DNA of 64,000 nucleotides from a virus: IMG/VR virus record IMGVR_UViG_3300008255_000003, positions 1 through 64,000 of that record; one strand, 5' to 3'. The stretch's first letter is position 1, and each line of letters begins with the position of its first letter. A program made the translations under genes and the position numbers. The notes under the pieces were generated by a model. That model had not been told where the DNA came from. It searched no databases and saw nothing but the letters and a program-made list of their open reading frames with translations. Positions 17,239 through 47,671 of the stretch are shown here, one piece after another.

Positions 17239-18726
17239 ATGACTGTTCTAAATCTTGTCGAGTCATACATCTTAGGCGAAGCGGCGCGCTGGAAGCGAGA
17301 GGGTGTAAAGATAGAGAAGCCAGAAGAGACGGTGGAGTCTTATATCGGCAAGCCTGGCCACTACATCTCGTTCACTGGTCTGCCCAAACTTGGGATCAAT
17401 CCTCAGTCCAAGTTTAAGACACCATTGGCTATCTACACATATGCTCTTGATGACCCCTGGTTTGCCCGTACATGGGCGACACACAAAGAGACGGCCAAGG
17501 GGTTCCCCTTTAGGCCTGAACAGCCTTACATCCAAATCATGAAGCTCAAGAGCCTCAATGGCCTCGTGGTGTTCGATCGTTCGGGAGCAATCATTCATGG
17601 CGCCAATCTGATTGATGCTGCCCTCAAGGCTATCGAGGGTGATGATTGGGCTGATGCTGTGGCGCTCGCCAGGGATGAGTCTAAGAGGTGGATGTCAGAC
17701 TTCGGGTCTGAATCATTGAAGGTGCAGCGCGTCTGGGCTGTCACTAGGGCTAAGGCGATGATCGACACGCAAGGCGGAGGTAGTGAGATTGCCAGATGGG
17801 GTAAGATCCTCATGAGCCTTGGAATCATGGCTGTAGAGGATCGTGGTGCTGGCATGATTCACGAAAATGAACCACACCAGGCAGCTATCCTCTCAATGGC
17901 CGCAGTTGATCGCATCGCACAGGTCGAAAATCCGTTACCAGAAGCGATAAGCGTTAAGCCTGTTAGGGGCTCGGGCAAGTTCAAGCGAGAGTTCAAGCAG
18001 CACTATCAGGACTATATCGACATCATCAATAAGTTCAGGGCATTAGGCGACGTCACCAGTGTGACAAGCATCGACACCGCTCTTGAGTACATGCTTAGGG
18101 ATAAGCCGCTCTATATACGCCAGAAGGATCTTGAGAAGTGGGATGCGAGAGTCGTGGTGCTCAATGAGCTTTATGACTACATCACCAAGGATGAGATAAA
18201 TCGATCATTCTTTACGCCAAATGGTAAGGGTCGGGTGATGGGCAAGATCTCTTATGAGTTAAGGGGTTCTGTTGGTGAGCTTGCCATTGGAGGTATGTTG
18301 GTTTCAAGGGCCTTACAGGTAACTGTGCCGAGCCTATTCTTTGATAACACGGGTCTTTTCTCTAAGACTACTCAAGCCAGGCTCCCAAGTGTTGGTGTGA
18401 GCAATACGGTGAAGTTCAACATCCCAGAGATAGTCTTTAAGAATGAGGTGATCTCGAAAGCATCATTCCCAGACTTAAACTTGAGGACAGAGCCTGGACG
18501 CGGCTCCACCTCGTTAGCTCTTTTCAGTAATTGCAGACTGTCTTCAAATCAAGTCACACCAGATGATGTCAAAAGGTTTAACGATCTAATCAGTCGTGGT
18601 GCTATGAACAGTTCAGACGCTGATGATCTTAACTCTGCTGTGATGCGATGCTTTAACGGGCTCTTTAAACGTGAGAGTAGACCAGTGGTTACTATTGGCA
18701 AGTCGGTTAGGTTTGTGGAGTATTAG
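17239..18726 (+). CDS. ESY-leader family B protein, copy 1 (conserved enzyme-like N-domain)
   Basis: GGAG RBS; MTVLNLVESYILGEAARWKREG; SFT.LPKLGINP, TPL.IYTY, DRG.G.IH.NEPHQA. Confidence 0.85.
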   Translation: MTVLNLVESYILGEAARWKREGVKIEKPEETVESYIGKPGHYISFTGLPKLGINPQSKFKTPLAIYTYALDDPWFARTWATHKETAKGFPFRPEQPYIQIMKLKSLNGLVVFDRSGAIIHGANLIDAALKAIEGDDWADAVALARDESKRWMSDFGSESLKVQRVWAVTRAKAMIDTQGGGSEIARWGKILMSLGIMAVEDRGAGMIHENEPHQAAILSMAAVDRIAQVENPLPEAISVKPVRGSGKFKREFKQHYQDYIDIINKFRALGDVTSVTSIDTALEYMLRDKPLYIRQKDLEKWDARVVVLNELYDYITKDEINRSFFTPNGKGRVMGKISYELRGSVGELAIGGMLVSRALQVTVPSLFFDNTGLFSKTTQARLPSVGVSNTVKFNIPEIVFKNEVISKASFPDLNLRTEPGRGSTSLALFSNCRLSSNQVTPDDVKRFNDLISRGAMNSSDADDLNSAVMRCFNGLFKRESRPVVTIGKSVRFVEY

Positions 18727-18746
18727 ACGTGCAACCGTTGCACGCT

Positions 18747-18788
18747 CAAACAAGAGAGCCGCCCAGATATGGGCGGCTCTCTTGTTTG
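18747..18788. terminator. Bidirectional terminator between convergent genes
   Basis: 18-bp perfect arms CAAACAAGAGAGCCGCCC / GGGCGGCTCTCTTGTTTG. Confidence 0.8.
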
Positions 18789-18791
18789 GTG

Positions 18792-20438
18792 TTACAGATG
18801 GCTGTCGTCGTCTGACGCCCTCTTTTTCAACTCTCGAAGAGCGGCACGCTCAACAACCTTCTTACTAAGGGTGGGCCTAAGCCTTTTGACAGTATCATTG
18901 CTGCGACCAGATAGGTTTCTTATGAGCGCGTTGGTTCTTTCAATATCAACTCCATTGCCATCATCATCACCTTCATTGGCATTATAGGCGACACACCCCC
19001 TGGAGTCAGAATCTTCCACTTCGTCATCTTCAGTTACGATATAAAGCTCATTACGGTCGATTGAGGTTGGCTGGTCGAAGGTGATGTCATTCTTTAGTAG
19101 AACGAAGTCATCACCAAGGCTTGCTATGGCTTTGGTGATCATATCGACACCAGCAACGCCCGTCCTTTTGCTAGCATGGTCGATAATCTCACCCATAGTC
19201 ACCATGAGCTTGTCGGACACGCCATTACGCTTCGCCAGCGCCTCCAGATCGCGCGCAGTGGGCTTTGGCCATAGGATCACTTGGTCGATGCGTCCAGGCC
19301 TTCTGAGGGCTTTAGGTAGCTTCCTGATGTTATTGCAGTTTCCGATGAAGATACCATCACGGCTAGCCATCTCTAGCAGTAGGCTTATGGAGTCTGTTTG
19401 CTCCATCCGATCAAAGTCGTCAATAATGAGCGCGCGCCCATTGAAGATGAGTCGAGTGGTGTCACCATCATAGATTCCAGATGTGACAAGTGTTGCGCTC
19501 TTAATACCACGACTTCGGAGGTAGAGGCTGACGCCCTGCGTTTTACCAGACCCGGTATCACCCTGGATTATCACCTTAAAGCGCTTGTTACTGCCTATGC
19601 GCATATCCCAGTGGTTAAAGATCGGCTCAAAAGCTTCAAGCTCGATAACATCTTCTGGGAAGGTAGGTCTGATGAGTGTGAACGTGCTGCTCCTGTGGAT
19701 GGTGAAATGGTCAGGCATGAAGCTGTCGAAGATGTCCTCTGGGGATGTCTTATCTTCGCGCATACTTATCGCGGTGATGCCTTCGCTACTGAAGGTTAAG
19801 ATGTGCTTTTCGTTGCTTAGCACCTTTATGAGACTGGGGCCTTTCCTGCCCTTAAAGAGCTTCTCAAAGTTCCAGTGCTTGGGCCTTGGTTCGATGTGGT
19901 TGAGTTTGTAGTCGTCAGCCTGAATGGTGAATCCGCAAATCCTACCCCCAGACTCAAAGCCGGACGCGCTCCTAGAGATCCAATAGTGATTGATGTCATC
20001 GGTGGTCAAGCCATTCACGCTGAGCAACTCTCGAACAAATGAGCGCGCCGGGTTGTCGCTTTGGTCATCCTCGTCGATCTTAGATGGTGCGAGGATGCGT
20101 TCTAGCACGGCGGGGCCTTTTGGTAGGAGGTGGGCTGCGATCTTGATTGGATCGCGTGTTACAATAAGCGGTGCGATTGCGCTTGCGAAATCCAGCCCGC
20201 CAGCGATCACTCCGGCCACCTTCTCATGTTTGATGATAACCTTTGCGAACTTTACCCTGACGATCTCTGTTCGGTCGCTGAGGCTAAGCTTGGTGGCCTT
20301 CGGGCTACTTTTGCGCCTTGAGCGCCATAGCGACTTGGCGATGGTGATGGCTGCGATCGAAGCTACTGATACCGCTGCGACACCGAAAGATGCTTTTTTA
20401 AGATCTTGTAGTGTCAGGTCTTTCTTTGTGCTTTCCAT
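18792..20438 (-). CDS. AAA+ ATPase with long N-terminal extension
   Basis: Walker A GDTGSGKT, Walker B LIIDDFD, second region of homology ALRRPGRID; start 20438 with GGGAG RBS. Confidence 0.85.
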   Translation of the reverse strand: MESTKKDLTLQDLKKASFGVAAVSVASIAAITIAKSLWRSRRKSSPKATKLSLSDRTEIVRVKFAKVIIKHEKVAGVIAGGLDFASAIAPLIVTRDPIKIAAHLLPKGPAVLERILAPSKIDEDDQSDNPARSFVRELLSVNGLTTDDINHYWISRSASGFESGGRICGFTIQADDYKLNHIEPRPKHWNFEKLFKGRKGPSLIKVLSNEKHILTFSSEGITAISMREDKTSPEDIFDSFMPDHFTIHRSSTFTLIRPTFPEDVIELEAFEPIFNHWDMRIGSNKRFKVIIQGDTGSGKTQGVSLYLRSRGIKSATLVTSGIYDGDTTRLIFNGRALIIDDFDRMEQTDSISLLLEMASRDGIFIGNCNNIRKLPKALRRPGRIDQVILWPKPTARDLEALAKRNGVSDKLMVTMGEIIDHASKRTGVAGVDMITKAIASLGDDFVLLKNDITFDQPTSIDRNELYIVTEDDEVEDSDSRGCVAYNANEGDDDGNGVDIERTNALIRNLSGRSNDTVKRLRPTLSKKVVERAALRELKKRASDDDSHL

Positions 20439-20633
20439 GATTGACTCCCTAGTCATGGGGTTATTGAAGTTGTGATAGTGCATGTGCTTTAACTGAGCGG
20501 TCAATGCTTAATAATGAAGGGGCTTTTACTGTTCGTGGCAGGTGCTATGATTTCAACATGGGTGTTTGCCCGCACTATTTTTATGGGGGGATAAGGGCAC
20601 GGTTTTAAAATTCAAATCAATCTGAGGTTAATC

Positions 20634-21143
20634 ATGTCTACCTTGGCCCATCTCTTTTTCACCATTAAGGCAATAAGGGCGACGCCGACTTATGAACGTC
20701 TATCTTCTCTTTTAAGATCCCAACCTGGCGACATAAGGATGCCTTTACTGATGCTGATGATGAGCGGTCTTGGCGGCATATTTAAGTGGCCTCCAAAAGA
20801 CATGCAAGTCTATGAGACGCTCATTAAGGTGACAGGTATATCTGGGCCTGGTGGTGGGCTGGTGAGGATTTCAGTGGCCACCTTTGTGATCATCGGGTAT
20901 CTGCTGCCTTATAAAAACTTTAGAAGGGCCACATATATGTCAGCCCTTCTAAGCTGTCTGTTGATCTCGATAGCAACGTGGGACACTTCTCAAGGGTTTG
21001 CTTCTGGCGTTTGGGCTGGTGGTGCAATCATGTCGTGGAGGGCTATTTACGCCGAGGGGGCCGCTGATGCCTACAATTCAAATGATGTTATTTTCGATAA
21101 GGTGGTTGCCAATGCCCGTAATCGCGACATCGCCACCACCTGA
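20634..21143 (+). CDS. Multi-pass membrane protein (holin-like, tentative)
   Basis: About four hydrophobic segments in 169 aa; GAGG RBS. Confidence 0.5.
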   Translation: MSTLAHLFFTIKAIRATPTYERLSSLLRSQPGDIRMPLLMLMMSGLGGIFKWPPKDMQVYETLIKVTGISGPGGGLVRISVATFVIIGYLLPYKNFRRATYMSALLSCLLISIATWDTSQGFASGVWAGGAIMSWRAIYAEGAADAYNSNDVIFDKVVANARNRDIATT

Positions 21144-21618
21144 ATCATGGTTGGACTGGAGGCTTGGGGCTGGCCTTGTCGCCGGTGCGTTGGCTGCACT
21201 TGGTAAGGATCTTATTTTTGAGCAAGGCCGAAGGCTTAAGGCTAGATGGGCGCTTAAGGATGAGCAGGCTAAGACGGAGGTTGTTCGTCAACTAACGCGC
21301 GAAGAGAAGATGCAAGCTCAGATTGACGCACTTCTTGCTGAGAAGTCGAAGGTGTTGGATGAACGTAATGCCGAGCTTAAGGCTGAGAATGAAGCGCTTA
21401 AGGCTGATCTTGCTGAGAGTAGGCGTGAGACGCTTCAACTGGTAGTGGGAGGTGCTGAAGCTAGGGCTATGTTTAAGCGCGTGGCAAGTCGAGAGCTTCT
21501 CAAAACTTCACCTGGCATCCCAAGGAATAGGCTGGAGCATATTTCTGAGGTGGTGGATAGTGAAGAAGACGACGAGATTCTGTCTTTACTTACAGAAGAA
21601 ATAAGTGATCCTGATTAA
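21112..21618 (+). CDS. Single-TM coiled-coil protein (possible lysis accessory)
   Basis: AAGGTGG RBS then ATG 21112; N-terminal hydrophobic helix followed by heptad-rich segment. Confidence 0.5.
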   Translation: MPVIATSPPPESWLDWRLGAGLVAGALAALGKDLIFEQGRRLKARWALKDEQAKTEVVRQLTREEKMQAQIDALLAEKSKVLDERNAELKAENEALKADLAESRRETLQLVVGGAEARAMFKRVASRELLKTSPGIPRNRLEHISEVVDSEEDDEILSLLTEEISDPD

Positions 21619-21633
21619 TACCTGGGGTGATTG

Positions 21634-21677
21634 ACCAAAAGACCTACTTAGCGTTGATGCCAAGTAGGTCTTTTGGT
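21634..21677. terminator. Bidirectional terminator
   Basis: 16-bp arms ACCAAAAGACCTACTT / AAGTAGGTCTTTTGGT between convergent genes. Confidence 0.75.
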
Positions 21678-21702
21678 GTCAGTCACATTCAGGTCGCAGC
21701 AC

Positions 21703-21963
21703 CTACGCTGCGGCAATCTTGTATGTCTTGAGTAGAACGCGCATCATCGCTCCCAAGTACGTTGGGATGTTCTGGTGGCCTCGCTCAAGAATTGAGACGT
21801 ATTGCCGCGTTACGTTCAACTCCCTTGATAACTCGGCCTGGCTTATTTCTAAAGAGTGCCTGATGGATTTAAACTCTTCGCTACTCATATCACTGTGGTC
21901 AAACACCACTGGCGTATAAGTAGGGATTGAGGGGCGACCTCGCTTTCTTTTCTCTTCGCTCAT
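21703..21963 (-). CDS. XRE-family helix-turn-helix protein with N-terminal KRKRGRP
   Basis: FKSIRHSLEISQAELSRELNVTRQYVSILERG is a canonical HTH_3 pattern. Confidence 0.85.
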   Translation of the reverse strand: MSEEKRKRGRPSIPTYTPVVFDHSDMSSEEFKSIRHSLEISQAELSRELNVTRQYVSILERGHQNIPTYLGAMMRVLLKTYKIAAA

Positions 21964-21974
21964 ATTCTTGCCGT

Positions 21975-22265
21975 TCAGTTGAGGATCTGGATTCTGATGA
22001 TTGAGGCGATGAGCCCACAAGCATCTTCTACAACTTTGTCTCGTATTCTAAGATCTTTGCCGTCGATAGAGTTGAGTGTCTCTTGTGCAATGAGCGCCAC
22101 CCTTAAGCCATTTTCGTTACGCGCAATGACTTCGTTATCAAAGTTGGCGGTTAGTATGATTAGGGCTAGGTCTGGATCTTCTGCGATGGCCTCTAAGACA
22201 CTTCCGTAAAAGAGATTTGTATTGAGTCCAGCGCTTGCCCTTCGTTCGTCATGATAGGACTTCAA
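21975..22265 (-). CDS. Hypothetical protein
   Basis: Overlap-coupled with neighbours in a minus-strand run. Confidence 0.6.
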   Translation of the reverse strand: MKSYHDERRASAGLNTNLFYGSVLEAIAEDPDLALIILTANFDNEVIARNENGLRVALIAQETLNSIDGKDLRIRDKVVEDACGLIASIIRIQILN

Positions 22266-22705
22266 AAGGGTGCCAGCTCTTCTGGGTCATCAAAAATAAC
22301 ACAACCCAGTTCGGCCAACGCCTCTAAGATGTCATCATGGGCGGCAGTGGTGACGTAGACCGCATTAAGCGCGTTCGCCGCATCAACAGCATCACAACAA
22401 TCGCCGCTGCGATCTAGGATATTGATGCCATACTCCCATTTAGGAACCACAGCCCTAATGAGTTCTGCCAGATCGTTGTAACTATGGGCTAGCTGTCTAT
22501 CCTCTAGCTTAAGCGGTGCTACTGCCCATCGACTCCCATCAGTGAAGCCCCCTTTAACTACACAGTCACTATCACCCCATGCGCCCATTGATAACGCGCC
22601 ATAGATCATGATGCTCAGCTTTGCAGGCGGTGTGCTCATGTGGTCACTTTCTATGCAAATGTCATAAGCCCAGGGTTTTAAGTTTTCACTTATCAAAGCC
22701 TTCAT
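22262..22705 (-). CDS. Hypothetical protein
   Basis: ATGA overlaps at both ends. Confidence 0.65.
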   Translation of the reverse strand: MKALISENLKPWAYDICIESDHMSTPPAKLSIMIYGALSMGAWGDSDCVVKGGFTDGSRWAVAPLKLEDRQLAHSYNDLAELIRAVVPKWEYGINILDRSGDCCDAVDAANALNAVYVTTAAHDDILEALAELGCVIFDDPEELAPF

Positions 22706-22998
22706 GAATAGATCTCCTGAAAGGTTGCGCTCTCGATGAGCCCGGATTTACTGATTTTTATGACTGAGTGACCGTGAGCCTCACCATTCTTATAGATAGT
22801 GGCCTTAAGCTCAGTGGGTACGGTGATGTTGAGGTCTGAGAACGTTGTGATGTAAGCCGCCATAGTCTTAAGCCTTTCCATGACATCTTCTAGGCTTTTG
22901 AATTTTGCAGACATCATGTCAAACCCATCAACATCATTTATCTTGAATTGAAACTGCATAGACCAACCATTGTTAGGATTGTTTAACGCCACTGACAA
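22702..22998 (-). CDS. Hypothetical protein
   Basis: Coupled to the downstream gene; start uncertain. Confidence 0.55.
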   Translation of the reverse strand: MSVALNNPNNGWSMQFQFKINDVDGFDMMSAKFKSLEDVMERLKTMAAYITTFSDLNITVPTELKATIYKNGEAHGHSVIKISKSGLIESATFQEIYS

Positions 22999-23018
22999 TG
23001 GAGTAGCACGAGGCAGAT

Positions 23019-23603
23019 CTAAAACTCAAACGGTTTTGGAGCCCTCGATTTTAGCCGTCTTTTGTTCGATCTGTTCGATGATATGACACTGCTGATGCCT
23101 GGCTTCCCGCCACCAGTTGAGAGGTCTAGCGCAAGCATGAGGTCGAGATCGTCCTGCACTTGCGTTGATCGATATTCAACCGTTCCCATCTGCACAAGGA
23201 AGCCGTCGCTATCAATCCCATCACGCCTCTCAAGCCCAGACTGCACATCATAGACACCATTAAATATGTCTAGCGTCATGAGCTTGCTTGTCAGCTCGCA
23301 CGCCACATAGACGCGCATTGAGAATTTGACGTCAGCTTGACGCATGTAGCCAACGATCATTGGTGCCACAACCTCGCCGTGCCAGCCCTCATGATCATTG
23401 GCCTGAAGAAACAGCCCAACCGCGAGAAGCGATCGCCAGGCCATATCTTCGGCGGTCGCGGTCCCGATCTGCTCGTAAGTGATCGCTCTAATGACCTCGA
23501 CCGCTTTACGGGGGTCTTTGGCCGTTGCATCGAAGTCCTTATATCGCGGCAGGAGCCGCAATAGTTTTATATCGGCCCTATTAACCCATAGGATGTTTTT
23601 CAC
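23019..23603 (-). CDS. Hypothetical protein with basic C-terminal tail
   Basis: GGAGG RBS; 194 aa. Confidence 0.65.
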   Translation of the reverse strand: MKNILWVNRADIKLLRLLPRYKDFDATAKDPRKAVEVIRAITYEQIGTATAEDMAWRSLLAVGLFLQANDHEGWHGEVVAPMIVGYMRQADVKFSMRVYVACELTSKLMTLDIFNGVYDVQSGLERRDGIDSDGFLVQMGTVEYRSTQVQDDLDLMLALDLSTGGGKPGISSVISSNRSNKRRLKSRAPKPFEF

Positions 23604-26343: not shown

Positions 26344-26344
26344 C

Positions 26345-35534: not shown

Positions 35535-36013
35535 TTGCGATAGTTCTTTACGCCTTCGCTAGCCTCAAGGGCCTCGTGCGCCGCGATGGCTGTGGCGATG
35601 ATCTTTATGAGTTGCGCTTTGGGGTCTGGGCTCTCACCTAGTCGGCTAGAGTATTGAGTAAGGATCTCAGACCATTCACTTGAGGTGTGTGCCATGTCAT
35701 GCCTCAAGCCACCCCAGATCGTCTTCTGCTTAAGGCGTTCAGCCTCAACAGCCTCTAGCATGGCCTTTTGCTTGGAGTCTGCCTTGGGGTCCGAGAGTTC
35801 ACCGTGATGGTCTGCGGCGACCCTGTTGTGGCAATATTCAGTGTCACGACATCGCCATGACATGATGTGCTCCGTGGCATCTTCATTGTCGTACTTGATG
35901 ATGATCTCATGCCTGGCAGCAGTATCATCTTCAATGATGCGACTGCAAAGCTCGCAAAACTCAGAGTATTCTGGAGAGACATGGTGAAGGATCTCGCGTT
36001 TAGTGTAGCTCAT
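35531..36013 (-). CDS. Protein with degenerate MazG-like C-terminal domain
   Basis: ER.KQ...WG......W..IL.......LIKIIA.A.A pattern; acidic EExGE motif absent. Confidence 0.5.
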
Positions 36014-37746
36014 TCAAAGTTACCCGTAAGGTTGGATGGGATAAACTGCTCAAGAGCCTTCAAGCGTGATGGGTGCTTGAGTTTCTTGAGGGCCTTTGCT
36101 TCGATCTGCCGGATACGCTCCCGAGTAACGCTGAAGTCGTTTCCGACTTCTTCGAGAGTGTGATCGGTAGTATCACCTATGCCATAGCGAAGGCGCAACA
36201 CCCGTTCTTCACGAGCAGGAAGTGTGGATAAGATCTGCCTTGTAGCTTCGCTCAAGGTCTTACCTTCTATCGCTTCATGCTGGCCCTCATTGAGTACGTC
36301 CTCAATGGTGTCCTCAAGCGTGAAGTTGCCATCTCCTATTGTCTGGTTGAGGCTGACGGGTTCATAGGCAAGCTGGAGCATCTGACGCACCTTATCAACA
36401 TGGATTCCCATCTCGTCAGCGATCTCTTGCGGCTTAGGTGTTTCGCCTGACTTCTGAGCCATCGCCTTTTCAATGCGTTTGAGCTTATGGATGGTGTCGA
36501 TCATGTGGACAGGGATACGGATTGTTCGAGCCTGGTCTGCGATGGCCCTTGAAATGGCCTGCCTGATCCACCATGTGGCGTAGGTTGAAAACTTATAGCC
36601 GCGCTGATGCTCAAACTTATCAACTGCGCGCATAAGTCCGATGTTGCCCTCTTGGATCAGGTCCAGCAGTGGTATACCTCGGTGGTCATGCTTCTTGGCT
36701 ATGGATACGACCAGGCGAAGGTTTGATTGCACCATGACAGACTTGGCCCTCATCGCCAGATCTTCGCCTACTGATATGGCGGAGAATGCGATCTCAAGCA
36801 GGCTCATGGGTAACCCAAGCTCTCGCTCTATCGTATTCATCCTCTTAGTTGCCTGGATAAGATCGCCAAGGACAATGTGATGATTATGCTCGTTAACCTT
36901 GGTGCCATCGCAAGCCATTAAGGCGGCTTTCTTCATGCCCTTATTGAACATGGAGTTGATGAATTTGACCCTCTCCAAACTCACCATGAAGATGCCTTCC
37001 ATAGAACGGAGTTCAGCTTCAGCGAGTTTGGCCTCATTGTATTTTGACTTGAGGCCATTCGATATAAGGTCAACGTACTTCTTGGTGAAGTAAAACGAGC
37101 TAATGCCGTTGGTGATAACTTCGACCTCATCTGAGTTTAAGACTGGCGCGCCTATCCTTGAGGTGCTGCTTGTCCTTACTCGTTCAACGTCTTTAAGAAA
37201 CTCATTAAAGCGTTCGATGTTATCAAGCTCGAAAGCCTCCACCGCCTCGGGATCATTGAAGTCGATCTTCTCACCTGGCGCTGCTTGTAGCAGGTCGGAC
37301 GACTTAATCTTTCGCTTACTTAGAAGCGCTCCAATGAGTTGAAGCTCTTTAAGCCCATACTGTGTGCATAGGGTGGTGTTAAGGATGATGCTTTCACCGC
37401 TTGAGATTTGCTCGGAAGCTTCGATCTCTTCTGCCCTTGTGAGGAGCGGCACCCTGCCGATCATCCTTAGATAAGTCCTCACACTGTCACTGCCGGACAA
37501 GCTTCCATCATCAAGCTGACTGCGGCGTTCTGATGACATGATCTTTCGAGGTGTAGCTGCGGCCTGATCACCGATCACTACACCCATGCTGCTTAGGATG
37601 GTTTTAAACAGTATAATGGCTTGAGCGTGTGGATAGTCTGTAATGATGTTGTCCACATCGTGATGACTGATGAAGCCATCACGATAGCCCTTGTAGAATG
37701 TATGCTTAAGCCTTCCAAGCTTGAACCTATCCGTTGCGCCGCCCAT
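36010..37746 (-). CDS. rpoD: RNA polymerase sigma-70 factor, RpoD-like (group 1)
   Basis: Region 1.2 [17 protein letters not shown]; region 2 [11 protein letters not shown]...[35 protein letters not shown]; region 4 [22 protein letters not shown]; non-conserved region and region 1.1-like N-terminus present. Confidence 0.97.
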
Positions 37747-38219: not shown

Positions 38220-39713
38220 ATGTCTAAGCTGAGCATTATTGAGAGCTACTTCCTGAGCGAAGCCAGGTGGAAAAAGGAAGGCGTCACCCTTGAGGATGAC
38301 TATGGAAAGATTGCAGCCCTTGCTGGTGAGGGTCATCACTATCTGAGCTTCACCGCCATTCCCAAGCTTGGGATTAACCCCCAGTCGAAATACAAGACCC
38401 CTTTAGGGATCTACACCTACGCTATGGCTGACGAGTGGTTCTGGAGGGCTTGGAATGAACACCAGTTCCCCTTCGTGGCAGACCAACCATTCGTTCAAGT
38501 CATGCGCGCGCGCAGTGAGTCTGGGCTTGTAGTCATCGAACGCGGCGGGGCACTATCTAAGGGCAAGTCTCTAATTCAGCGTGCCGTTAGTAAGTATGAG
38601 AAGATGATCGACACCGACGATGCTCACCGATATGCGAGCAAAGATGTTGAGCAGTATGACAGGCCTTGGATCAACTCTGTAAAGGGTGATGCCGCCCTAT
38701 TTAGGTGGTACTGGTCTTTCACGCGTTATCTTGCGATTGGTGATAAGGGTGGCAGTAATCGCCTTGCATGGATCTCACTATGGGGCAAGATCATGATGAA
38801 TGATGGTGTCATGATCATTGAGGACCGTGGTACGGGTACAATTCATCAGAATGAGCCTCACCAAGCTGTCGTCTTGTCGATGGCAGCGGTCGATCACGTC
38901 CTCCAAGCCCAGAACCCACTCAATGATGCTAAGGTTAAAGCACCTGTAAGGGGTGTTAAGCGCGAAGGTCGCAACTATAACAAGTTTAAGTCTGAAATCG
39001 CTGTTCACCTTGAGGCGTTCAGGCGTGGTGCTAGCGTCATCGACCAGATGGGTGTGGGCGAACGTCAGATTGATAGTATGCTCACTGAGGCTTACAGGAC
39101 GGCTAAGTTAACACCAGCAGGGCTCAAGAAAGCCTTTTATAAGGATGACGTCAGTGGCTTTGTGCCATCTGGGGTTTTTGAGTTTGAGCGTGAGGCAATG
39201 GGTAGTCTTGCAGATGGGCTTGAGCTTGGTGGTGATCTGGCTAAAACTTGGCTACTTGGTGAAGGTGCGATAGGTACTGAAAAGCGCCTGTCTCTTATAT
39301 TTTCACCAAAGGTCATCGTCGGTTATGACACTTTCGAGTTTAGATATTCCGACATATTCAAGCGCGGCGCCCCCATCCCACCAGATGTTAATTCATACTT
39401 TAGTGTTGAGGTGGGCAAGCTGCGCTTTAACTCTTCTAAGATCCACGTCGGGAACATCTACGGCATAGGTCTGACAAGTAACGTATCCAAGCTTAGCCTT
39501 GTGAATTGCGAGATTAGCATCACCAAAGAAGACCTTATGGAGCTTGGTGATTTTGATGCCGCTGAGGTTAAAGGCGCGATCTCCAATCCTAAGATCTTGG
39601 AAGCCGTCATGAAGGTTATTCTCGCAGGTCAATTCGTGCGGGCAGCAAGGCCAGACGGCCCTGCGTCTGGCTTGAACCTAAGTTTGGTTAACTGCAAGTT
39701 TGAGGTGGTGTGA
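38220..39713 (+). CDS. ESY-leader family B protein, copy 2
   Basis: MSKLSIIESYFLSEARWKKEG; same conserved blocks; ends NCKFEVV*. Confidence 0.88.
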   Translation: MSKLSIIESYFLSEARWKKEGVTLEDDYGKIAALAGEGHHYLSFTAIPKLGINPQSKYKTPLGIYTYAMADEWFWRAWNEHQFPFVADQPFVQVMRARSESGLVVIERGGALSKGKSLIQRAVSKYEKMIDTDDAHRYASKDVEQYDRPWINSVKGDAALFRWYWSFTRYLAIGDKGGSNRLAWISLWGKIMMNDGVMIIEDRGTGTIHQNEPHQAVVLSMAAVDHVLQAQNPLNDAKVKAPVRGVKREGRNYNKFKSEIAVHLEAFRRGASVIDQMGVGERQIDSMLTEAYRTAKLTPAGLKKAFYKDDVSGFVPSGVFEFEREAMGSLADGLELGGDLAKTWLLGEGAIGTEKRLSLIFSPKVIVGYDTFEFRYSDIFKRGAPIPPDVNSYFSVEVGKLRFNSSKIHVGNIYGIGLTSNVSKLSLVNCEISITKEDLMELGDFDAAEVKGAISNPKILEAVMKVILAGQFVRAARPDGPASGLNLSLVNCKFEVV

Positions 39714-41158
39714 TGTCTAAGTTAGATATGATCGAGAGCTACCTCCTCAGCGAGGCTCCACGCTGGAAGAAAGAAGGTGTAAGCCTTGAGAGTGACTACG
39801 CTAAGATCGCAGCTATGGCGGGCGACGGTCATCACTACTTAAGCTTCACCGCGATGCCCAAGCTTGGCATCAACCCGCAGTCCAAGCATGAGACGCCGCT
39901 CGGGATCTACACCTATGCAATGGCAGACCCTTGGTTTCAGAAGGTATGGGAGAATCAGCAGTTCCCCTTTGTTGCCGATCAGCCTTATGTTTAAGTCATG
40001 AAGGCTAAGAAAGAGTCAGACATCATCATCCTTGGTGAAAGCTCAATCATCCAAGGGGCGTCGCGCATTAGGACGCTTAACGATCAACACAAGCGCTACA
40101 TCGAGCAAGACTTTGTATTCGGTGAGGCCTTTAAAGAGTTCAAGTATAGGAGCTTACCTTGGGTTGATAGCGCCAGTGGTGGAGTGCGTGAGTTCAGGTG
40201 GTATTGGGCGTTCACCATGCAGCTATCTAAGATGATGAAGGCTGAGCGCCTGTCGTCTATCGCTTACTGGGGCAAGCGCATGATGGGCGATCGCATCATG
40301 ATCGTTGAAGATCGCGGTAGCGGCACCATCCATCATAATGAGCCCAACCAGGCCGTCATCTTGTCGATGGCGGCTGTTGATCATGTGATGCAAACGCAGA
40401 ACCCCCTCCGTGGTGCCAAGAGGCCATTCCCTGGCCACGGTACCCCCAAGTCAGGTCGAGCATTCCAGAGGGCCAAGTTACTCATCAGCGAGAAGATGCG
40501 AGTAATCAGGGACGCCGCGAAGGTGCTTAATGACCTCAAGAGCACCTTCGCACTCTCAGCTCAACTCTTTAAAGCTATGGATCTGGCTAAGAAGTCTGAC
40601 ACTGAGATCATCTCAAGCATCTCCACTGCGGCTGGGATTGATACTGAGAGTAAGACCTTTGGGGATATTGATGACCTTTATTTTACGCTGGGCAAACTTG
40701 TGGCGTTCTGGAATAGCAACACTGAGCTATCGGACATCTTCTTGCGCGGTAAGGATGCTCAGTACGTTGGTGGGTTTATTGATAATGTTGTCGATCTTGT
40801 CTTTATCGAGTTTGATGACATCACGCTGGAGCGAGTGAATATCTTTAACAGCCTTAATGACTTGGAAGGCCTGTCTGGTGTGATGCTTGGCTTTATGAAC
40901 ATGACCATTAGGGATTGCGTTATAGACTTGAATGCACTTCAAGACCTCGCTCTCACCGAGCCCACTAAGAGGCTTGTGTTTGATCGGTGTCGTTTCAAGC
41001 TCAAGGCTATCCCAAGTATTGCGGCTGGTACAACCCAACCCAACGAGAGTCAGTTGCGCGAGATCTCAAAGATCTTTGTTGGCGAAGTCAACGGCACCAA
41101 ATATCGAGATGGAATCAGGCCAGCATTCTTCAAGGATTGCACCTTCGACGTTACCTGA
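39713..41158 (+). pseudogene. ESY-leader family B, copy 3, interrupted by in-frame TAA
   Basis: ORFs 39710-39994 and 39998-41158 share a frame; TAA at 39992-39994 sits where paralogues have CAA/CAG Gln (QP.VQVM). Confidence 0.85.
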
Positions 41159-41177: not shown

Positions 41178-41846
41178 CTAGGCCTGTATCTCTTGCTCTG
41201 ACGCGATGAGCGCATCAAAGTCTTCAAGCTCAAGCGGCTTCTTGTATTCTATCTGCCCAAAGGCATCCTCAACGTCTTGGTGCGCCCTGGCTATCTCAAG
41301 CGTGATCCTTTCAAACTGATAAGACCTAACACCCATGACTCGCTCAAGGATGATACTGGTGAGCGATGCCAGACCTACTATGGATAGCGCCACTGCTAAT
41401 GGTCCAATGGAGTAACCAACAAAAGCCGTTAGGATCATCGCCATAGACATTAAGCACATCACACCGAGTAGCACTGAGGTTAAGCGCTTGAGGCGGTCAG
41501 ACTTATGTTGAGCCTCTTCTAGCCTTCTGGAGTTCTCTCTAAAGATGTCTAGCGATGCTTGTTTGGCGCGCGCCATTTCACGCTCAAGCGCGCGCCTCAC
41601 CTCTCTTTCAAGCTCAGCGCCTTTAGAGGTGTCTTTCATAATCCTACGCTCAACCAGATCTGGAGGTGGTGTAAATCTCTTGATCTCCATCATCTCAGAC
41701 TCTCGCCATCCAACACTTTTGCGCGCGACGGGTTTGATGCTTGCTGTGATCTTGAGATCGTTACCATCGAACTTTTTAAGCAGGATGTCATCGAGCGGCT
41801 CTCCGCGCTGATCGGCAAGAGCCTTGACTAGGTGCTTGAGTCTCAT
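41178..41846 (-). CDS. Membrane protein with coiled coil and two TM helices
   Basis: LTSVLLGVMCLMSMAMILTAFVGY / LAVALSIVGLASLTSII. Confidence 0.7.
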   Translation of the reverse strand: MRLKHLVKALADQRGEPLDDILLKKFDGNDLKITASIKPVARKSVGWRESEMMEIKRFTPPPDLVERRIMKDTSKGAELEREVRRALEREMARAKQASLDIFRENSRRLEEAQHKSDRLKRLTSVLLGVMCLMSMAMILTAFVGYSIGPLAVALSIVGLASLTSIILERVMGVRSYQFERITLEIARAHQDVEDAFGQIEYKKPLELEDFDALIASEQEIQA

Positions 41847-42781
41847 TTCAGCCTCACCAAGATGTCTGCCTGCGTTGTGATGACTTCTGATATGAATTTG
41901 GCGCTAAAATATTCTTGATAGCTTTGGCGATTTTGTTCAATGATTGCAGGTCCAACCAGCACATGATTCATGGCCTTCCTGATAGTGTCTTCGACGTCAC
42001 CAAGCGCAAGCTCTGTGATCATGCTAATCACAGATGGGCTTAGGAGTTCATGACTGTTGGCTTCGAGGTATTTTCTGGTTGCCTTGGATATGTTGTCTAG
42101 CTGCGCAAGGACCGTCATGTCAGACATGTTGAGTGGTATCTTCGAGGTGCGCACCACAAGGTCTGTACTGCCGCCAGACCTGTCATATAAATGCGCGCTT
42201 GCTTCGATCGACTCTTGGTCTGACAGCGCTTTGATTAGTGCAAGGCTGACGGTGGCGCCATGAAAGTCTTTGCAGTCTTTAACCCTGGCGAGATAGCCAG
42301 GCCTTAACACCCAAGTCAGATCGCCATCGATCATAAGCCTGGACAGTCGGATGTTCTGATTGAGCGCGACCTCTATGGTGATAAAGCCAAACCCAAAGAT
42401 CTTATCCAACTCAAAGAGGAGCGTCGCGGTGTCACCAGCATAGACCGTTGGCGGTATGTCGAAGCCTTCAGTGCTCATGATAAGGGTCATCTCATCCCTT
42501 ATCCTTATATGGTGCCTGGCTTTTTCGCTGGATAGTGATGACCCGTGATCATCGCGTTCATCTTTGAGCTTTACGACGTCACTCAATGGATCGGAGTGAA
42601 GCACATCAAAGCGATAGAGCGGCAGTTGAGCGCCCTTGAGGTGTCTTGAGCTGAGCGCCTCATGGTAGTCATCGAGGCTGTCTTGTACTTTGCAGATTGC
42701 CTTGTCTAGGTGCTTGTCGAATGCGGCTATACTCATGGTGTCATCATCTTGGTTGTTGGTTATAAGAAAGCGGCGGCTCAT
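41843..42781 (-). CDS. Hypothetical protein
   Basis: 312-aa ORF, coupled. Confidence 0.7.
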   Translation of the reverse strand: MSRRFLITNNQDDDTMSIAAFDKHLDKAICKVQDSLDDYHEALSSRHLKGAQLPLYRFDVLHSDPLSDVVKLKDERDDHGSSLSSEKARHHIRIRDEMTLIMSTEGFDIPPTVYAGDTATLLFELDKIFGFGFITIEVALNQNIRLSRLMIDGDLTWVLRPGYLARVKDCKDFHGATVSLALIKALSDQESIEASAHLYDRSGGSTDLVVRTSKIPLNMSDMTVLAQLDNISKATRKYLEANSHELLSPSVISMITELALGDVEDTIRKAMNHVLVGPAIIEQNRQSYQEYFSAKFISEVITTQADILVRLK

Positions 42782-42817
42782 TAGGCCGCCGACTCAACGC
42801 ACTATCACAGGCGCTTG

Positions 42818-43507
42818 TTACTTCATCCAGATGTCAGAAGCCTTAAGCGTCTCGACATACTCTCTTCGATAAGCCTTGGTGTTGAGCCCTTCAAAGCTTT
42901 GAAAGATCTCTTCACCGTTACTGTCAGTGAGTTTGAAGTAGGTCAGGCCAGCCGCTACTGCTAGCGCGATGTTGACCTTAGCCTCATCCCCAGCGATGAC
43001 CTTGAGAATCTCAATGTGGTCACTTCGCTTAGCTTCCTTGATCGTGAGGTTGAGCTTGTAGACCAGCCCCCCATTCTCAATCTTGCCGATGATCTTGCCA
43101 CCGTGTGTGAGGTTGATGTCTGTGAGGCGCGACTTAAGCTCTGCGGCGTGGTGTTCAGCGATTTCATCAAGGGTGAAGTTGGAGTAGCGTTTCTTGAGCC
43201 CCACGGACATCTTTACGGCCTGTTTAGAGATGCTTGGCCTCACATCATCCATTTCATCCATATAGTCCACCGAGTTGAGCAGTCGCCCCAGTGACGGTGC
43301 CGTCTCTTTGCACTCGTAGGAGGTGATGTTCATGTCCTCAATCTTCTTGAGGTTTTCGATGATGATCATCACCTTCTCTTCATTCTCATTAAGGCTGGGC
43401 TCATAGTTATAGATGGCGATGCTGGATAGCATCACAACAGCCACAGAGATAACTATCGCGATAAACACCTTGTTCTCTTTCATCCTCAACCTCTTATGAG
43501 TTTCCAA
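42818..43507 (-). CDS. Protein with N-terminal signal/anchor helix
   Basis: MKENKVFIAIVISVAVVMLSSIAIY. Confidence 0.65.
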   Translation of the reverse strand: METHKRLRMKENKVFIAIVISVAVVMLSSIAIYNYEPSLNENEEKVMIIIENLKKIEDMNITSYECKETAPSLGRLLNSVDYMDEMDDVRPSISKQAVKMSVGLKKRYSNFTLDEIAEHHAAELKSRLTDINLTHGGKIIGKIENGGLVYKLNLTIKEAKRSDHIEILKVIAGDEAKVNIALAVAAGLTYFKLTDSNGEEIFQSFEGLNTKAYRREYVETLKASDIWMK

Positions 43508-43539
43508 GTGAAAGGGCTACCACACAGTAGCCCTGATTC

Positions 43540-44390
43540 ATTGACGTTAAACTACTCGGCCCAAACCTGCAACGGTTGCATCCCTACTTCACAGCCTCAC
43601 GACATCCTAGACACTTTCCGAGCACAGCTTACGGCGGCACTCACTCACTAACCTCTAAATCCCTTATATCATCCCTTATTAAATCCAACCAAATCAACTC
43701 CAGAATCAACTTTTACCTCACACCATAACTTTCCCTACTCCATAGAATGCCACCCATCCGACATTCACACTTCAAACATCCCCAAGACCACATCAAATGA
43801 TCATCACTTTCAACCCCTATAAAAACACCCACTCTTCATAGACCCCCTCAACCAACCCCCCTTCATGGTGCATAACCACCCCATACATCCTATGGTGCAA
43901 TACATCGTATAGAACATCATCCCTTACCCATACTGACACCGTAGTGAGTTACGTCTGCACCATAACGAGTGACGATTACACCATAAGGCCTCTATGGTGC
44001 ATGATGACGGGAAAAGACATTTCGCTCCGCACCCCCACCCCCCTTTGAAAAAACTCAGGGGGGAGCTGCTCTGTTTTTTTTCCCAAGCACCATTGGGGGA
44101 TTTTTCAAAAGGGGCAGGGTGTGTCCCTATGGTGGAGGCATAGAGTCCTATGGTGGAGGCATAGAGTCCTATGGTGGAGGCATAGAGTCCTATGGTGGAG
44201 GCATAGAGTCCTATGGTGGCGGGAGGGGGTCGCGCGAGGGGAGTGACCTGTGGTGGTGGGGGTATGAGTGTACGGGGAGTGTGCGGGGGTCAATGTCAGA
44301 CGTGCAACCGTTGCATGTTGGAATGATGGGGGTCGGTGTTAGAATGGGGTTCGTGGCGAGATGTAAACAACGCACCATAGAGAGGTATGG
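43540..44390. other. Origin-like non-coding region at a transcription divergence point
   Basis: C/A-rich + strand to ~44045 switching to G/T-rich after ~44110; inverted repeat at the switch; 11 exact TATGGTG/CACCATA copies; dyads at 43566 and 44301. Confidence 0.55.
44126..44219 (+). repeat. 21-bp tandem repeat CCTATGGTGGAGGCATAGAGT x4.5
   Basis: Identical units at 44126, 44147, 44168, 44189 and a 10-bp partial at 44210; no spacers. Confidence 0.97.
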
Positions 44391-44391
44391 G

Positions 44392-45843
44392 ATGGGCAGT
44401 TTGGAGTTGGTCGAGCAGTATGTGATGGGAGAGGCGGCAAGGTGGAAAAAGGAGGGGGTTGGGCTTGTCTCACCGTATGAGGAGGTGAAGCAGTATATGA
44501 AGCCTGGTTACTTCCTGAGCTTCACTGCGCTGCCTAAGCTAGGCATGAATCCTAGATCGTCATACAAGACGCCTTTAGCGCTCTACACCTACTATATGGG
44601 GAGTGAGTATTTTAAGACCGCTTGGGAGAATCAGAAGTTCCCCTACCAGACGCAGCAGCCTTATGTCCAAATCATGAAGATTCGATCACCACCAAATATC
44701 GTGACGTTTGGAAACGGCAGGGTTGAGAATGATCATCTAATCGTGAAGGCTTTGGGGCGGTACAGGGAGAAGGCGCGTACAAGTCAGGTTCATGCCAATG
44801 CAATCGCATTGGCAAACCCGGACAGTGATCCCTGAATTGACTTATCTAGTGATGACGTCAGGCTGGTGCGTTATTACTGGGCGATAACAAAAGCGCTCGC
44901 GGCAGGCTCAATAGCACGCTGGGGTAAGCTGATGATGGATGATGGCATCATGGGCCTTAACGATATGGGGTCCGGCACCATCCATACGAACGAGCCTCAC
45001 CAAGCGGCGTTCTTTTCAATGCAAGCCGTGGATCATGTCACTCAACTTAACAATCCACTTGCAGGGGCGCTGCCTGACTTCAATGCCCAAGGTCTAGGGC
45101 CAGGGAGTTCTCAGAAATACTTTAAAGGTGTTCATAACAAGCTGAGGTTGTTAGTTAAGCTTGTCATTAAGCTTATGAATGAAATTGGCGTAAACCATAA
45201 GCTTAGTCAGAGTTTTATGGAGCTTGCTGGTGCTTCTGAGCTTAGTCTAGGTGACTTCGTAACTAAGGTTGCAGATCTCAATAACCCAAGCGGGTATAAT
45301 GAAGACTTTGAAGTAACGCTCGGTCTTTTTGACATCAAGGTGATTAAAGCTGCTGTTAAGGCGATCAAGCCGCACATCAATCAGATCGAGCCATTCCTTA
45401 AAGGTGCCAGGTTCACCACGAGCTGGCCTGGGAACAAGCTTAGCTTCCACGTTAATGACGTTAAGCTCTTGAGGTCTGACTACTTCAATATGCCAACGCG
45501 GCGAGAGTCAATTAATGACAATGTAGAGCTGTTTGTAAGGCAGATGAATCTGGTGGATAGTGTGATCACGCTAAACAGAATGCCCAACGCTCAAGACCTT
45601 GGGTTCATGTTTCCACCGTCATTTAGCTTTAGCAAGTGCATCATTAGGGCGACGATGGCGGAGTGGGATAAGATGCTCGGAACGGGCGGGGGTCAGATGA
45701 TTAAGGATGGCGTACCCCTTGCCAATCTGACACCTTTAACTAAGGCCATGTCTGAGCGACTAGACATGTCATTCTTAAACTCTAAGCGAATTGCGAAGCC
45801 AAATGACTTTCAGTTCTCCGACTGTAAGTTTGAGGTGATTTAA
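44392..45843 (+). pseudogene. ESY-leader family B, copy 4, interrupted by in-frame TGA
   Basis: MGSLELVEQYVMGEAARWKKEG from ATG 44392; TGA 44833-44835 at the Trp of PW(I/V)(N/D); the same frame continues to SDCKFEVI*. Confidence 0.85.
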
Positions 45844-45885
45844 TCATCACGCACGCAACGGTTGCATGTCATAAGGAATCCGACT

Positions 45886-46101
45886 ATGACTAAAAGTAAG
45901 AGAGAGATCTCGTCCAAAGATCCAAGGATAGAGATCGCGTGTGAGATTGAGAATATGGTGATGGTTGGTTTTTCCAGCGCCGAGTTGGCACCTAGTGATG
46001 AGCAGGGTTGGAATGTCGTAATGCTTATAGGTAGCGACGGCAAAAGATATAAAGTTACAGTCACAAGAGTTAACGAGAAGAGGGGTATGTCTGATGTCTA
46101 A
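45886..46101 (+). CDS. Small hypothetical protein
   Basis: AAGGA RBS, ATG 45886. Confidence 0.55.
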   Translation: MTKSKREISSKDPRIEIACEIENMVMVGFSSAELAPSDEQGWNVVMLIGSDGKRYKVTVTRVNEKRGMSDV

Positions 46102-47671
46102 GATTAAGGTGATAGAGCAGTACATGATCGGTGAGGCTGCTCGGTGGAAGAAAGAGGGTGCTGAGATCTTATCCCCCAAGGATGAGGTATCTTCATATAT
46201 AGGGGATGGTAAGGGCTATCACCTATTGAGCTTCACTGGTCTGCCCAAGCTCGGGATGAATCCCAAGTCGCACTACAACACCCCGCTCGGGATCTACACA
46301 TATTCTATGGTGGACCCTTGGTTTGAGAAGCAGTGGGAAGATCAGGACTTCCCCTTCGCGTCCGACCAGCCTTACATTCAGATCATGCGTCTAAGGTCTG
46401 AGCGCGGCCTTGTGGTGTTTAGCAACTCTGGCATCAGCATGGGGGGCTCGTTAATCAGCTCGCTCAATAAGAAGTATCAGAAGCTAATCACCCAGGGTGA
46501 TAATCGAGCGGTCGGTGCCCATAAGATGATGCTTCGTGGGAGTGAGTATTGGATTAATGAAGTAGCTGGAGGTGCTCGGGAAGTGCGCTGGTACTGGGCA
46601 TTCACTCAACATTACGCGAGCCTCATTGAGGGTGAGTCTGGCAAGCCTGTCAGGGATTGGAAGCACCCTGGTCATATTCATAACAACGCGGCGTCTATCG
46701 CGGTGTGGTCTAAGGTCATGGTTGATGATGGTATCGTCGCCTTCGATGATAGGGGGACAGGAACCATTCACCCTGACGAGCCGCATCAGGCAGTCGTGCT
46801 TACCATGAAGGCTGTGCAGCATGTCGCGCAGATCTTGAATCCTGTTGGCGGTGCAAGTCAGAAGCTCTTTAAGCGTGGCGTAAAGCGTCAGGGTAGGATG
46901 ATCAACATCTTCACCAAGTGGGCTGTTGAGACTCGCAAGGCGTTTGAGGAGGCCTACGATAGGGTTGAGAAACTGTCGAAGTATGATGAGATCTCAAACC
47001 TTGGGGCCATGTTGTTGATCAGGAATTTCCTTGAGAATAGTGATGAGGACAATATAAAGGGCGTCACCAACCAAGGTATGACAGACTTTGAGAGCAATAA
47101 AATGCAGATAATCAACGCCACCCTGGCCTTGCACGAGAGGGTTGAGCTGGCCTTGGACATGGCTGGTGATAATAGGCTGCTGCGCGCCATTCTCTATGGC
47201 GAGAGTGCGCAGAGGATAAGGGCAAGCCTTAATATGGTGATAGCCTCTACAATGCTTGATCTCACCATAGATGAGTTTGTGGTGCAGGGCTCTACCATGC
47301 TTGAATCGCCTAGCAATGTGAGCGCTGGGCTGGCTGACCAGTTTGGCATAAGCATCACGGCTAGCATCTGGAATCTTAGGTTTAAGAGGATGGAAGTTAA
47401 CGTAGAGTCTTTTGGTGCTTTAAAGGGTCTTTTGACGGGCATGTCAAAAGACATGAATCACTTTATCTTCGAGGGCTGCGACATCAAAGTGCCGAAGCTG
47501 GACTTCACGCTTGCGACTAATATTGAGCTTGGTGATGATGAGCTTGAGAACGAAGAGTTCTTCGCGGTGCTTTTTAAAGACTACTTCATTAAGGACATGC
47601 CTAGGATCTTGGGCATCAGCGGCAAACCACTGTCTGTTGAGGTTAAGGACTGTACTTTCGAGTTGGTCTGA
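46094..47671 (+). CDS. ESY-leader family B protein, copy 5
   Basis: MSKIKVIEQYMIGEAARWKKEG; conserved blocks; ends KDCTFELV*. Confidence 0.88.
   Translation: MSKIKVIEQYMIGEAARWKKEGAEILSPKDEVSSYIGDGKGYHLLSFTGLPKLGMNPKSHYNTPLGIYTYSMVDPWFEKQWEDQDFPFASDQPYIQIMRLRSERGLVVFSNSGISMGGSLISSLNKKYQKLITQGDNRAVGAHKMMLRGSEYWINEVAGGAREVRWYWAFTQHYASLIEGESGKPVRDWKHPGHIHNNAASIAVWSKVMVDDGIVAFDDRGTGTIHPDEPHQAVVLTMKAVQHVAQILNPVGGASQKLFKRGVKRQGRMINIFTKWAVETRKAFEEAYDRVEKLSKYDEISNLGAMLLIRNFLENSDEDNIKGVTNQGMTDFESNKMQIINATLALHERVELALDMAGDNRLLRAILYGESAQRIRASLNMVIASTMLDLTIDEFVVQGSTMLESPSNVSAGLADQFGISITASIWNLRFKRMEVNVESFGALKGLLTGMSKDMNHFIFEGCDIKVPKLDFTLATNIELGDDELENEEFFAVLFKDYFIKDMPRILGISGKPLSVEVKDCTFELV

Follow-up and report, generated by a model that had tools for sequence, protein, structure and literature searches.

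A five-copy family of phage proteins with a probable ADP-ribosyltransferase-like N-terminal domain and divergent C-terminal regions

The virus record IMGVR_UViG_3300008255_000003 of IMG/VR carries, within its first 64 kb (64,000 nucleotides, positions 1 to 64,000; in the following, the window), five paralogous genes which probably represent a lineage-specific expansion of one phage effector family. Their products combine a conserved N-terminal domain, for which the fold of the ADP-ribosyltransferase (ART) superfamily is the likely assignment from structure prediction, with strongly divergent C-terminal regions. The full reading, according to which three intact and two broken genes stand for effectors of the ART superfamily using nicotinamide adenine dinucleotide (NAD+), each with a C-terminal module directed at a different host target, is in our estimate evenly balanced between right and wrong. 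The complete record comprises 129,896 bp with 123-bp direct terminal repeats and, read from the encoded genes, is the genome of a T4-type contractile-tail phage, that is, a 130-kb myovirus. The five genes are as follows.

17239..18726, + strand: copy 1, intact, 495 aa; ART-like N-domain at about 17239-17937
38220..39713, + strand: copy 2, intact, 497 aa; N-domain at about 38220-38921; the copy used for modelling
39713..41158, + strand: copy 3, 481 codons, broken by an in-frame TAA; its ATG overlaps the stop codon of copy 2 by one base
44392..45843, + strand: copy 4, 483 codons, broken by an in-frame TGA
46094..47671, + strand: copy 5, intact, 525 aa; N-domain at about 46094-46846

Five paralogs and their relatives

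Searching the whole genome with copy 2 returned exactly five places, with E-values of 0, 2e-95, 1.3e-75, 1.8e-66 and 7e-58 and identities to copy 2 of, in the same order, 100, 54, 38, 45 and 44%. A sixth copy was not found when a 103-sequence family profile, with all filters off, was run against every frame of at least 50 aa in the genome. Genome search and profile thus bear out the sequence-only reading, which had proposed five paralogs starting at 17239, 38220, 39713, 44392 and 46094, and the motifs it had quoted are all present, namely RWK(K/R)EG, SFT..PKLG.NP.S...TPL.(I/L)YTY, FP(F/Y)...QP(Y/F).Q.M and W.K......D.G.G.IH..EP.QA. The start of copy 1 at 17239 agrees with the N-termini of its paralogs and with a GGAG located 9 nt upstream. 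In the five-way alignment, 60 columns are invariant, 57 of them within the first 244 residues (copy 1 numbering) and only L286, C432 and F492 beyond. Because of this distribution, the earlier claim of a conserved N-domain followed by a divergent remainder is correct; only the N-terminal 235 residues or so are common to the family.

Two of the copies are interrupted within this conserved part, at the following codons.

39992..39994, + strand: in-frame TAA of copy 3, at the conserved Q of QPY.Q.M; truncates the ART-like domain downstream of predicted strand 3
44833..44835, + strand: in-frame TGA of copy 4, at a conserved W; inside the helical insert of the N-domain

At each site, the other four copies keep the Q or the W, respectively, and both stops are one transition away from the sense codon (CAA to TAA and TGG to TGA). 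Both are found unchanged, with 0 other letters, in contigs from two metagenome runs, X1 (aquifer, 2017) and X2 (cold spring, 2019), which show a single-base difference from the window elsewhere in 9.5 kb; the two runs are not fully independent of the record, since either may itself be its source. Recoding was considered and rejected. In a search of the genome, tRNA genes were not found, and all three stops are widely used among the 144 open reading frames (ORFs) of at least 80 aa (TGA 63, TAA 52, TAG 29); therefore, the genome is not recoded. The simplest reading is that of two recent, fixed nonsense mutations, both cutting the conserved domain.

The five proteins did not match any entry in Pfam, PHROGs or NCBIfam. 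Against 1.84 billion cluster representatives, the five-copy profile gave 2443 matches at E ≤ 1e-3, 1513 at E ≤ 1e-10 and 22 at E ≤ 1e-30, the last number including the window's own pieces. When one genome from each of 185,579 prokaryote species was scanned in a pattern-limited way, only two loci came up, on short contigs of metagenome-assembled genomes, and the family therefore looks essentially viral. In the tree, the five window copies form one clade (support 100/97) which is sister to a second expanded clade (P0010-P0016), and tandem pairs are also present in two metagenomic relatives (L018 and L021). Besides, the domain is found inside giant proteins of 1.4-4.7 thousand amino acids together with SLT, NUDIX, PBECR5 RNase and LigT domains, for example, in P0024 (2058 aa; PBECR5, SLT and NUDIX), P0028 (4678 aa; PBECR5) and P0036 (2407 aa; LigT-type 2'-5' RNA ligase domain).

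Two further loci were noted in the course of these searches. On a 200-kb viral contig (L009, 617-9242), five ORFs of 455-477 aa lie on one strand, of which only the last (7875-9242) matches the profile; the remaining four could belong to an additional paralog array of greater divergence. On another contig (L008, 832-4219 and 7860-9212), a family member is located 3.6 kb downstream of phage NAD+ salvage genes, encoding a nicotinamide phosphoribosyltransferase and an NMNAT/Nudix fusion, a neighbourhood seen in one of the seven related loci scanned.

Predicted fold, candidate active site and alternative readings of the N-domain

For residues 1-270 of copy 2, AlphaFold2 with the 103-sequence alignment produced a confident model, with a mean predicted local distance difference test score (pLDDT) of 90.1 and a predicted template modelling score of 0.80. 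Strands are assigned at residues 40-45, 64-68, 91-97, 103-106, 112-114, 199-203, 214-218 and 224-231, with a helical insert at 116-194, and the model agrees with the split beta-sheet core of two three-stranded units known from solved ART structures. Foldseek against the PDB gave no match at E ≤ 1e-3, the best being 9k3a_B from the cyanophage A4 pre-ejectosome (E 3.1e-3, prob 0.99); next come AcrIF11 (6kyf) and numerous PARP catalytic domains at E-values of about 0.3-2. In BFVD, nine matches were obtained at E < 1e-3. The top named one is a PolyVal ADP-ribosyltransferase (6e-5), and the other named ones are two ART-PolyVal-like proteins (2.2e-4 and 8.8e-4), one entry called just 'membrane protein' and a protein with a large-polyvalent-protein-associated domain; the list continues with a third ART-PolyVal-like protein at 1.4e-3. 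The wide search with VIA-align resulted in 15 of 50 rows spanning the whole domain, all of them belonging to the ART superfamily except one uncharacterised nuclear magnetic resonance structure, and in a second look ART-superfamily proteins occupied all 50 rows. Among the full-length fold matches are A4 gp27, phage ART-PolyVal proteins, RES/ParT toxins, PARPs and AcrIF11, at modest scores. Neighbours proposed by a language model, to be taken as leads only, comprise a viral cluster with ART-PolyVal in 21% of its members (0.90) and an AcrIF11 cluster (0.89). The four structure searches rest on one predicted model and the language-model search on sequence. The check by AlphaFold plus Foldseek that the sequence-only reading had suggested returned ART-superfamily folds, and its idea of an ART-like catalytic domain stands at the level of the fold, but the corresponding link by sequence or profile to ART families was not obtained. 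From the model, an ART fold of the N-domain is considered likely.

Chain B of 9k3a is taken to be gp27 of phage A4 (A-4L; record KF356198), from its size of 1717 aa and from Cys1715 as named in the available part of PMC12002296. The matched region of gp27, at about 1121-1612, contains LYHGT and GTYFS and, about 130 residues later, VDALTDGD, and its first part scores below threshold on the ART-PolyVal hidden Markov model (HMM) (E 0.0035, 13.1 bits). As an observation in its own right, the gene of this packaged ejection protein in Anabaena phage A-4L (L010, 20116-25269, - strand) contains an H-Y-type ART-like domain. In contrast to the window family, gp27 keeps the His (LYHGT/GTYFS) and is a packaged 1717-aa podovirus protein, and its sequence similarity to the family is not detectable. 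AcrIF11, an anti-CRISPR mono-ART (PDB 6kyf, PF26151), differs in its length of 137 aa without helical insert or C-terminal module, and the scores linking it to the N-domain are weak.

Another system for comparison is ART-PolyVal (PF18760; Tox-ART-HYD2 clade), the ART domain of polyvalent proteins of phages and conjugative elements. According to the available part of a survey of polyvalent proteins, strands 1, 2 and 5 of their ARTs bear H, Y and D, respectively, and the proteins themselves have a multidomain architecture, with packaging and injection predicted for them (Iyer et al., 2017, PMC5512222). The window family is alike in its predicted fold (Foldseek E-values of 6e-5 to 1.4e-3), in being almost confined to phages and in that some relatives (P0024, P0028 and P0036) are giant proteins of the polyvalent type. 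However, its acid appears to be the E of E-P-x-Q instead of D, and the strand-1 His is mostly replaced by Ser or Thr. Moreover, the N-domain has the helical insert of about 80 residues as well as a long conserved K-x-G-x-N-P...T-P loop, and the window copies are stand-alone proteins of about 500 aa, not polyvalent giants.

Conservation among the 103 aligned relatives (copy 2 numbering) is near-complete at many positions: K49 (102/103), G51 (103/103), N53 (100/103), P54 (102/103), T60 (102/103), P61 (103/103), G63 (102/103), Y65 and Y67 (101/103 each), W165 (101/103), W188 (102/103), D202 (103/103), H209 (99/103), E212 (101/103), P213 (97/103), Q215 (103/103) and N232 (96/103). Such near-invariant residues across relatives form a pattern that is typical of an active site, as judged from the alignment. 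By eye, Y-L-S-F-T of strand 1 and G-I-Y-T-Y of strand 2 correspond to LYHGT and GTYFS of A4 gp27, so that Ser43 takes the place of the His and Y65 that of the Tyr. Y65, part of G63-I64-Y65 and thus of the G-x-Y motif, is on the predicted strand 64-68. Position 43 is S in 67, T in 20, H in 13, Q in 2 and N in 1 of the relatives, and the minority with His supports the register. The catalytic acid would be either E212, which is part of N-E-P-x-Q and precedes strand 214-218 by two residues, or D202, with which strand 199-203 ends. This mapping onto gp27 LYHGT/GTYFS/D-G-D agrees with the earlier assignment of an SFT strand, a G.Y strand and an acidic EP.Q motif. Catalytic activity of the N-domain with NAD+, suggested by model and conservation, is given a little less than an even chance.

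Several results weigh against an NAD+-using effector. The mapping of the catalytic residues was made by eye, and it puts Ser at the canonical strand-1 His (or Arg) position in all five copies and Ser or Thr in 87 of the 103 relatives. The PF18760 HMM found nothing at E ≤ 10 in the whole genome (family cut-off 31.2 bits), with the RPP1 vRNAP as positive control reaching 41 bits. Likewise, hhalign of the 103-sequence profile gave probabilities of 0.2% versus A4 gp27 and 0.4% versus the RPP1 ART domain, hmmsearch with all filters off did not reveal a link to ART families, and searching the PDB sequences with the family profile resulted in 0 matches at E ≤ 10. In the available part of PMC12002296, the authors describe gp27 as a structural part of the pre-ejectosome, assigning no enzyme activity to it and not mentioning the ART-like domain. 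Finally, copies 3 and 4 are broken and still so in two samples; therefore, not every copy is needed. Membership in PF18760 (ART-PolyVal) was rejected, as neither an HMM match nor a profile-profile signal was obtained. Judged from the predicted fold, the family is at best a separate, new, non-canonical clade of the ART superfamily.

The possible role of the proteins in the virion bears on this reading too. In T4, the gp21 protease cleaves after Glu in (L/I)xE, and Alt as well as internal proteins are targeted and trimmed in this way; head-packaged ARTs are an established idea. All five N-termini conform to M-x-x-[LI]-x-[LIVM]-[IV]-E-[SQ]-Y, and an N-terminal [LI]xE is present in all of them. 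Among the relatives, 74 of 101 carry [LI]xE in their first 14 residues, versus 17 of 125 ORFs of this genome. By analogy, the motif fits a capsid-targeting or cleavage signal, but it may merely be the first helix of the fold. Further similarities to T4 Alt (and ModA/ModB) are a myovirus genome encoding a T4 gp21-type prohead protease, several ART-like paralogs per genome, the N-terminal hxE resembling gp21 cleavage sites, and copy 1 adjoining baseplate and tail genes. On the other hand, Alt, ModA and ModB are R-S-E ARTs of a different clade, and neither an R-S-E motif, searched by eye, nor a sequence match was found in the window family. Injection of the proteins is argued from analogy and context, namely the polyvalent relatives, the packaged gp27 and the position of copy 1 after the tail module. 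Delivery from the virion appears rather unlikely; a transfer together with the DNA, by head packaging as for T4 Alt or polyvalent proteins, is possible and less certain than the enzymatic interpretation.

If packaging did apply, the proteins might also be non-catalytic virion, internal or ejection proteins, that is, packaged structural or DNA-handling parts using the ART-like fold as a scaffold. The best structural match being a packaged ejection protein described structurally only, the missing strand-1 His, the location of copy 1 directly after the tail and baseplate module, the enrichment of [LI]xE and the Peptidase_S77 prohead protease of the phage all speak for such a role. However, ten polar residues are near-invariant across about 100 diverse relatives, a pattern resembling an active site and unusual in a scaffold, and four of the five genes are located away from the structural module, with two of the copies dispensable, so that this explanation is considered unlikely. 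Slightly less probable again is a convergent or spurious resemblance to ARTs, with the N-domain being some other kind of enzyme or binding domain. Each structural score is below the level that the tools call safe, and the profile-level signal is absent (PF18760, hhalign and hmmsearch), but the structure searches and the language-model search agree on the ART superfamily, nothing else spans the domain, and 13 of 103 relatives have His where strand 1 is predicted to carry it. A third possibility, close behind and also of low probability, accepts the fold and proposes a hydrolase or phosphorylase that consumes NAD+ in the manner of the RES, MbcT and NatT toxins; this enzyme would not modify a macromolecule and might instead act in host shut-off, superinfection exclusion or counter-defence via altered NAD+-derived signals.

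C-terminal regions and proposed mode of action

Beyond the N-domain, the sequence-only reading had noted a common tip in four of the copies, and this is indeed present at the ends of copies 2-5 (NCKFEVV, DCTFDVT, DCKFEVI and DCTFELV), whereas the end of copy 1 differs. Among other genome frames of at least 50 aa, the tip ending was not found.

39678..39710, + strand: C-terminal tip of copy 2 (LSLVNCKFEVV), last unit resembling a leucine-rich repeat (LRR); earlier unit at residues 425-434
41123..41155, + strand: C-terminal tip of copy 3; earlier units at residues 397 and 421 (spacing 24)
45808..45840, + strand: C-terminal tip of copy 4; earlier units at residues 385 and 411 (spacing 26)
47636..47668, + strand: C-terminal tip of copy 5; earlier unit at residue 457

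The tip is not a unique tag but the last unit of a repeated h.h..C.h.h motif occurring two to three times per protein. This motif corresponds to the LxLxxCxI core of LRRs, and the internal units are 24-26 residues apart. In copies 2-5, all cysteines (two to three per protein) are inside such units. Copy 1, which is without the shared tip, has one internal h.h..C unit with the invariant C432, its other cysteine (C471) being outside. A Pfam LRR match was not obtained for the C-region. Modelling of this region from an anchored alignment of 26 sequences was poor, with a mean pLDDT of 57.6 (61-86 over the last 100 residues or so), showing a long helical linker and then, where the h.h..C.h.h units are, beta-hairpins separated by short helices, and the fold search with this model gave generic helical matches only. 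A low-confidence Atlas model has as its nearest structures F-box/LRR, TLR-LRR and LRR-domain proteins (TM 0.29-0.44, leads only). Together, the Atlas neighbours, the motif and its spacing suggest that the C-region is a short LRR-like binding module. In the relatives, the C-terminal regions vary widely, with HEAT, pentapeptide, LRV and beta-helix repeats present in some. The earlier notion of variable target-recognition modules is thus plausible from the LRR-like repeats, with the C-region modelled at low confidence.

The reverse logic, in which a conserved N-domain delivers or anchors and the variable C-terminal half is the warhead, recalls MuF-toxin and polymorphic toxin proteins with their conserved N and variable C parts and would suit the strong differences between the C-regions, but these lack a match to any enzyme family and carry repeat units typical of binding modules (as do the HEAT, pentapeptide and LRV regions of relatives), and both the active-site-like conservation and the enzyme fold are in the N-domain, leaving this the least probable of the alternatives.

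ADP-ribosylating enzymes are central in phage-host conflict, with T4 Alt and Mod, AcrIF11, DarT and the ARTs of polyvalent proteins as examples. The scheme that we infer for NAD+-using effectors of this kind, comprising use of NAD+, the catalytic residues, targeting by the C-region, timing and delivery, would start from an architecture of a short conserved N-terminal helix, an ART fold of about 220 residues split by the helical insert, a variable helical linker and a short array of LRR-like, Cys-containing repeats ending in the shared tip. The N-domain would bind NAD+ in a pocket lined by near-invariant residues, namely S/T/H43 on strand 1, the K49-G-x-N-P loop, T60-P, Y65/Y67 on strand 2, D202, H209 and E212-P-x-Q215 before strand 5. 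ADP-ribose might then be transferred to a macromolecule of the host, the variable C-terminal module selecting which one, so that the targets would differ from copy to copy, in host takeover or counter-defence. Copies 3 and 4 would have been inactivated recently by single nonsense transitions. With regard to the polymorphic effector arsenal that had been proposed, the expansion to five copies agrees with it, but only three genes are intact, the other two being broken by stop codons.

In a more far-reaching version, which we consider improbable though somewhat less so than any of the alternatives weighed above, the family would be a major unrecognised class of phage effectors. It would form a non-canonical [S/T/H]-Y-E ART clade of at least 1,500 clusters, almost none of them cellular, with swappable C-terminal modules against different host defence or housekeeping targets, and phage lineages would expand and prune it as a polymorphic counter-defence arsenal, part of it perhaps virion-delivered; hence the five copies, two of them freshly broken.

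As to precedents, Bacillus phage G encodes at least 10 ARTs, and 30% of myoviruses encode ARTs, as stated in the available part of a more recent survey (Iyer et al., 2022, PMC9503650). Searching the full-text literature, with subscription journals and supplementary alignments outside its scope, for four family motifs returned no relevant paper; the supplements of Iyer et al. (2017, 2022) may list the family. What seems to be new is a large, nearly phage-confined family without a library model, having Ser/Thr in place of His/Arg, its own loop and insert, and exchangeable C-terminal repeat modules. It is a widespread phage protein family, as yet without a name or a relative of solved structure recognisable by sequence. 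If active, it would widen the known catalytic repertoire of the ART superfamily, the canonical strand-1 His being absent, and would provide an entry to a large part of phage 'dark matter', one built of modules (an enzyme and an exchangeable binding part) and subject to rapid turnover.

Genomic setting of the five genes

Structural genes identified in the record include those for a portal, a Peptidase_S77 (T4 gp21-type) prohead protease, a major head protein, tail sheath, tube and baseplate proteins. The late module begins at about 100 kb, reaches the end of the record and is carried on at the start of the window, from position 1 up to 17,100 or so. Copy 1 is the first gene beyond the tail and baseplate module and on the same strand, with a terminator-like hairpin in between.

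17144..17162, + strand: terminator-like hairpin plus T-run, between the last gene of the tail module and copy 1
17205..17217, strand not assigned: palindrome TGCAACSGTTGCA, just upstream of copy 1

The same palindromic element is found at 18730, 38139, 41162, 44303, 45855 (11-nt core) and 47677, and from these positions every paralog unit is bracketed by the palindrome. In the general form (A)CATGCAACSGTTGCATGT, its 11-nt core GCAACNGTTGC occurs 48 times in 129,896 bp, nearly always in intergenic position and often either immediately behind a stop or 10-20 nt ahead of a GGAG with its start codon. Examples within the window are at 3715, 6231, 9762, 14018, 17205, 18730, 23626, 29601, 32205, 38139, 41162, 44303, 47677, 49302 and 60066. 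Possible roles of the element are those of a phage-specific promoter or operator, of a terminator hairpin or of a site for RNA processing.

Just upstream of the palindrome of copy 4, a perfect 21-bp tandem repeat with 4.5 copies is located at 44126-44219 (also at 43946-43986). It sits in a gene-poor stretch of about 880 bp, where contig depth is raised in both runs X1 and X2, which suggests repeat collapse or variable copy number.

Copies 2-5 have neighbours of mixed orientation and adjoin a sigma-factor gene. The latter (36010-37746, - strand) encodes an RpoD-like protein of 578 aa with regions 1.2, 2, 3 and 4 and is divergent from copy 2. A search of phage records did not reveal any that resembles this genome at the DNA level. 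Other genes of the window encode DNA methyltransferases and an endolysin-like protein, and at 52614-55367 (+ strand) a class II (B12-type) ribonucleotide reductase of 917 aa is encoded, bearing a TSCPD domain at its C-terminus.

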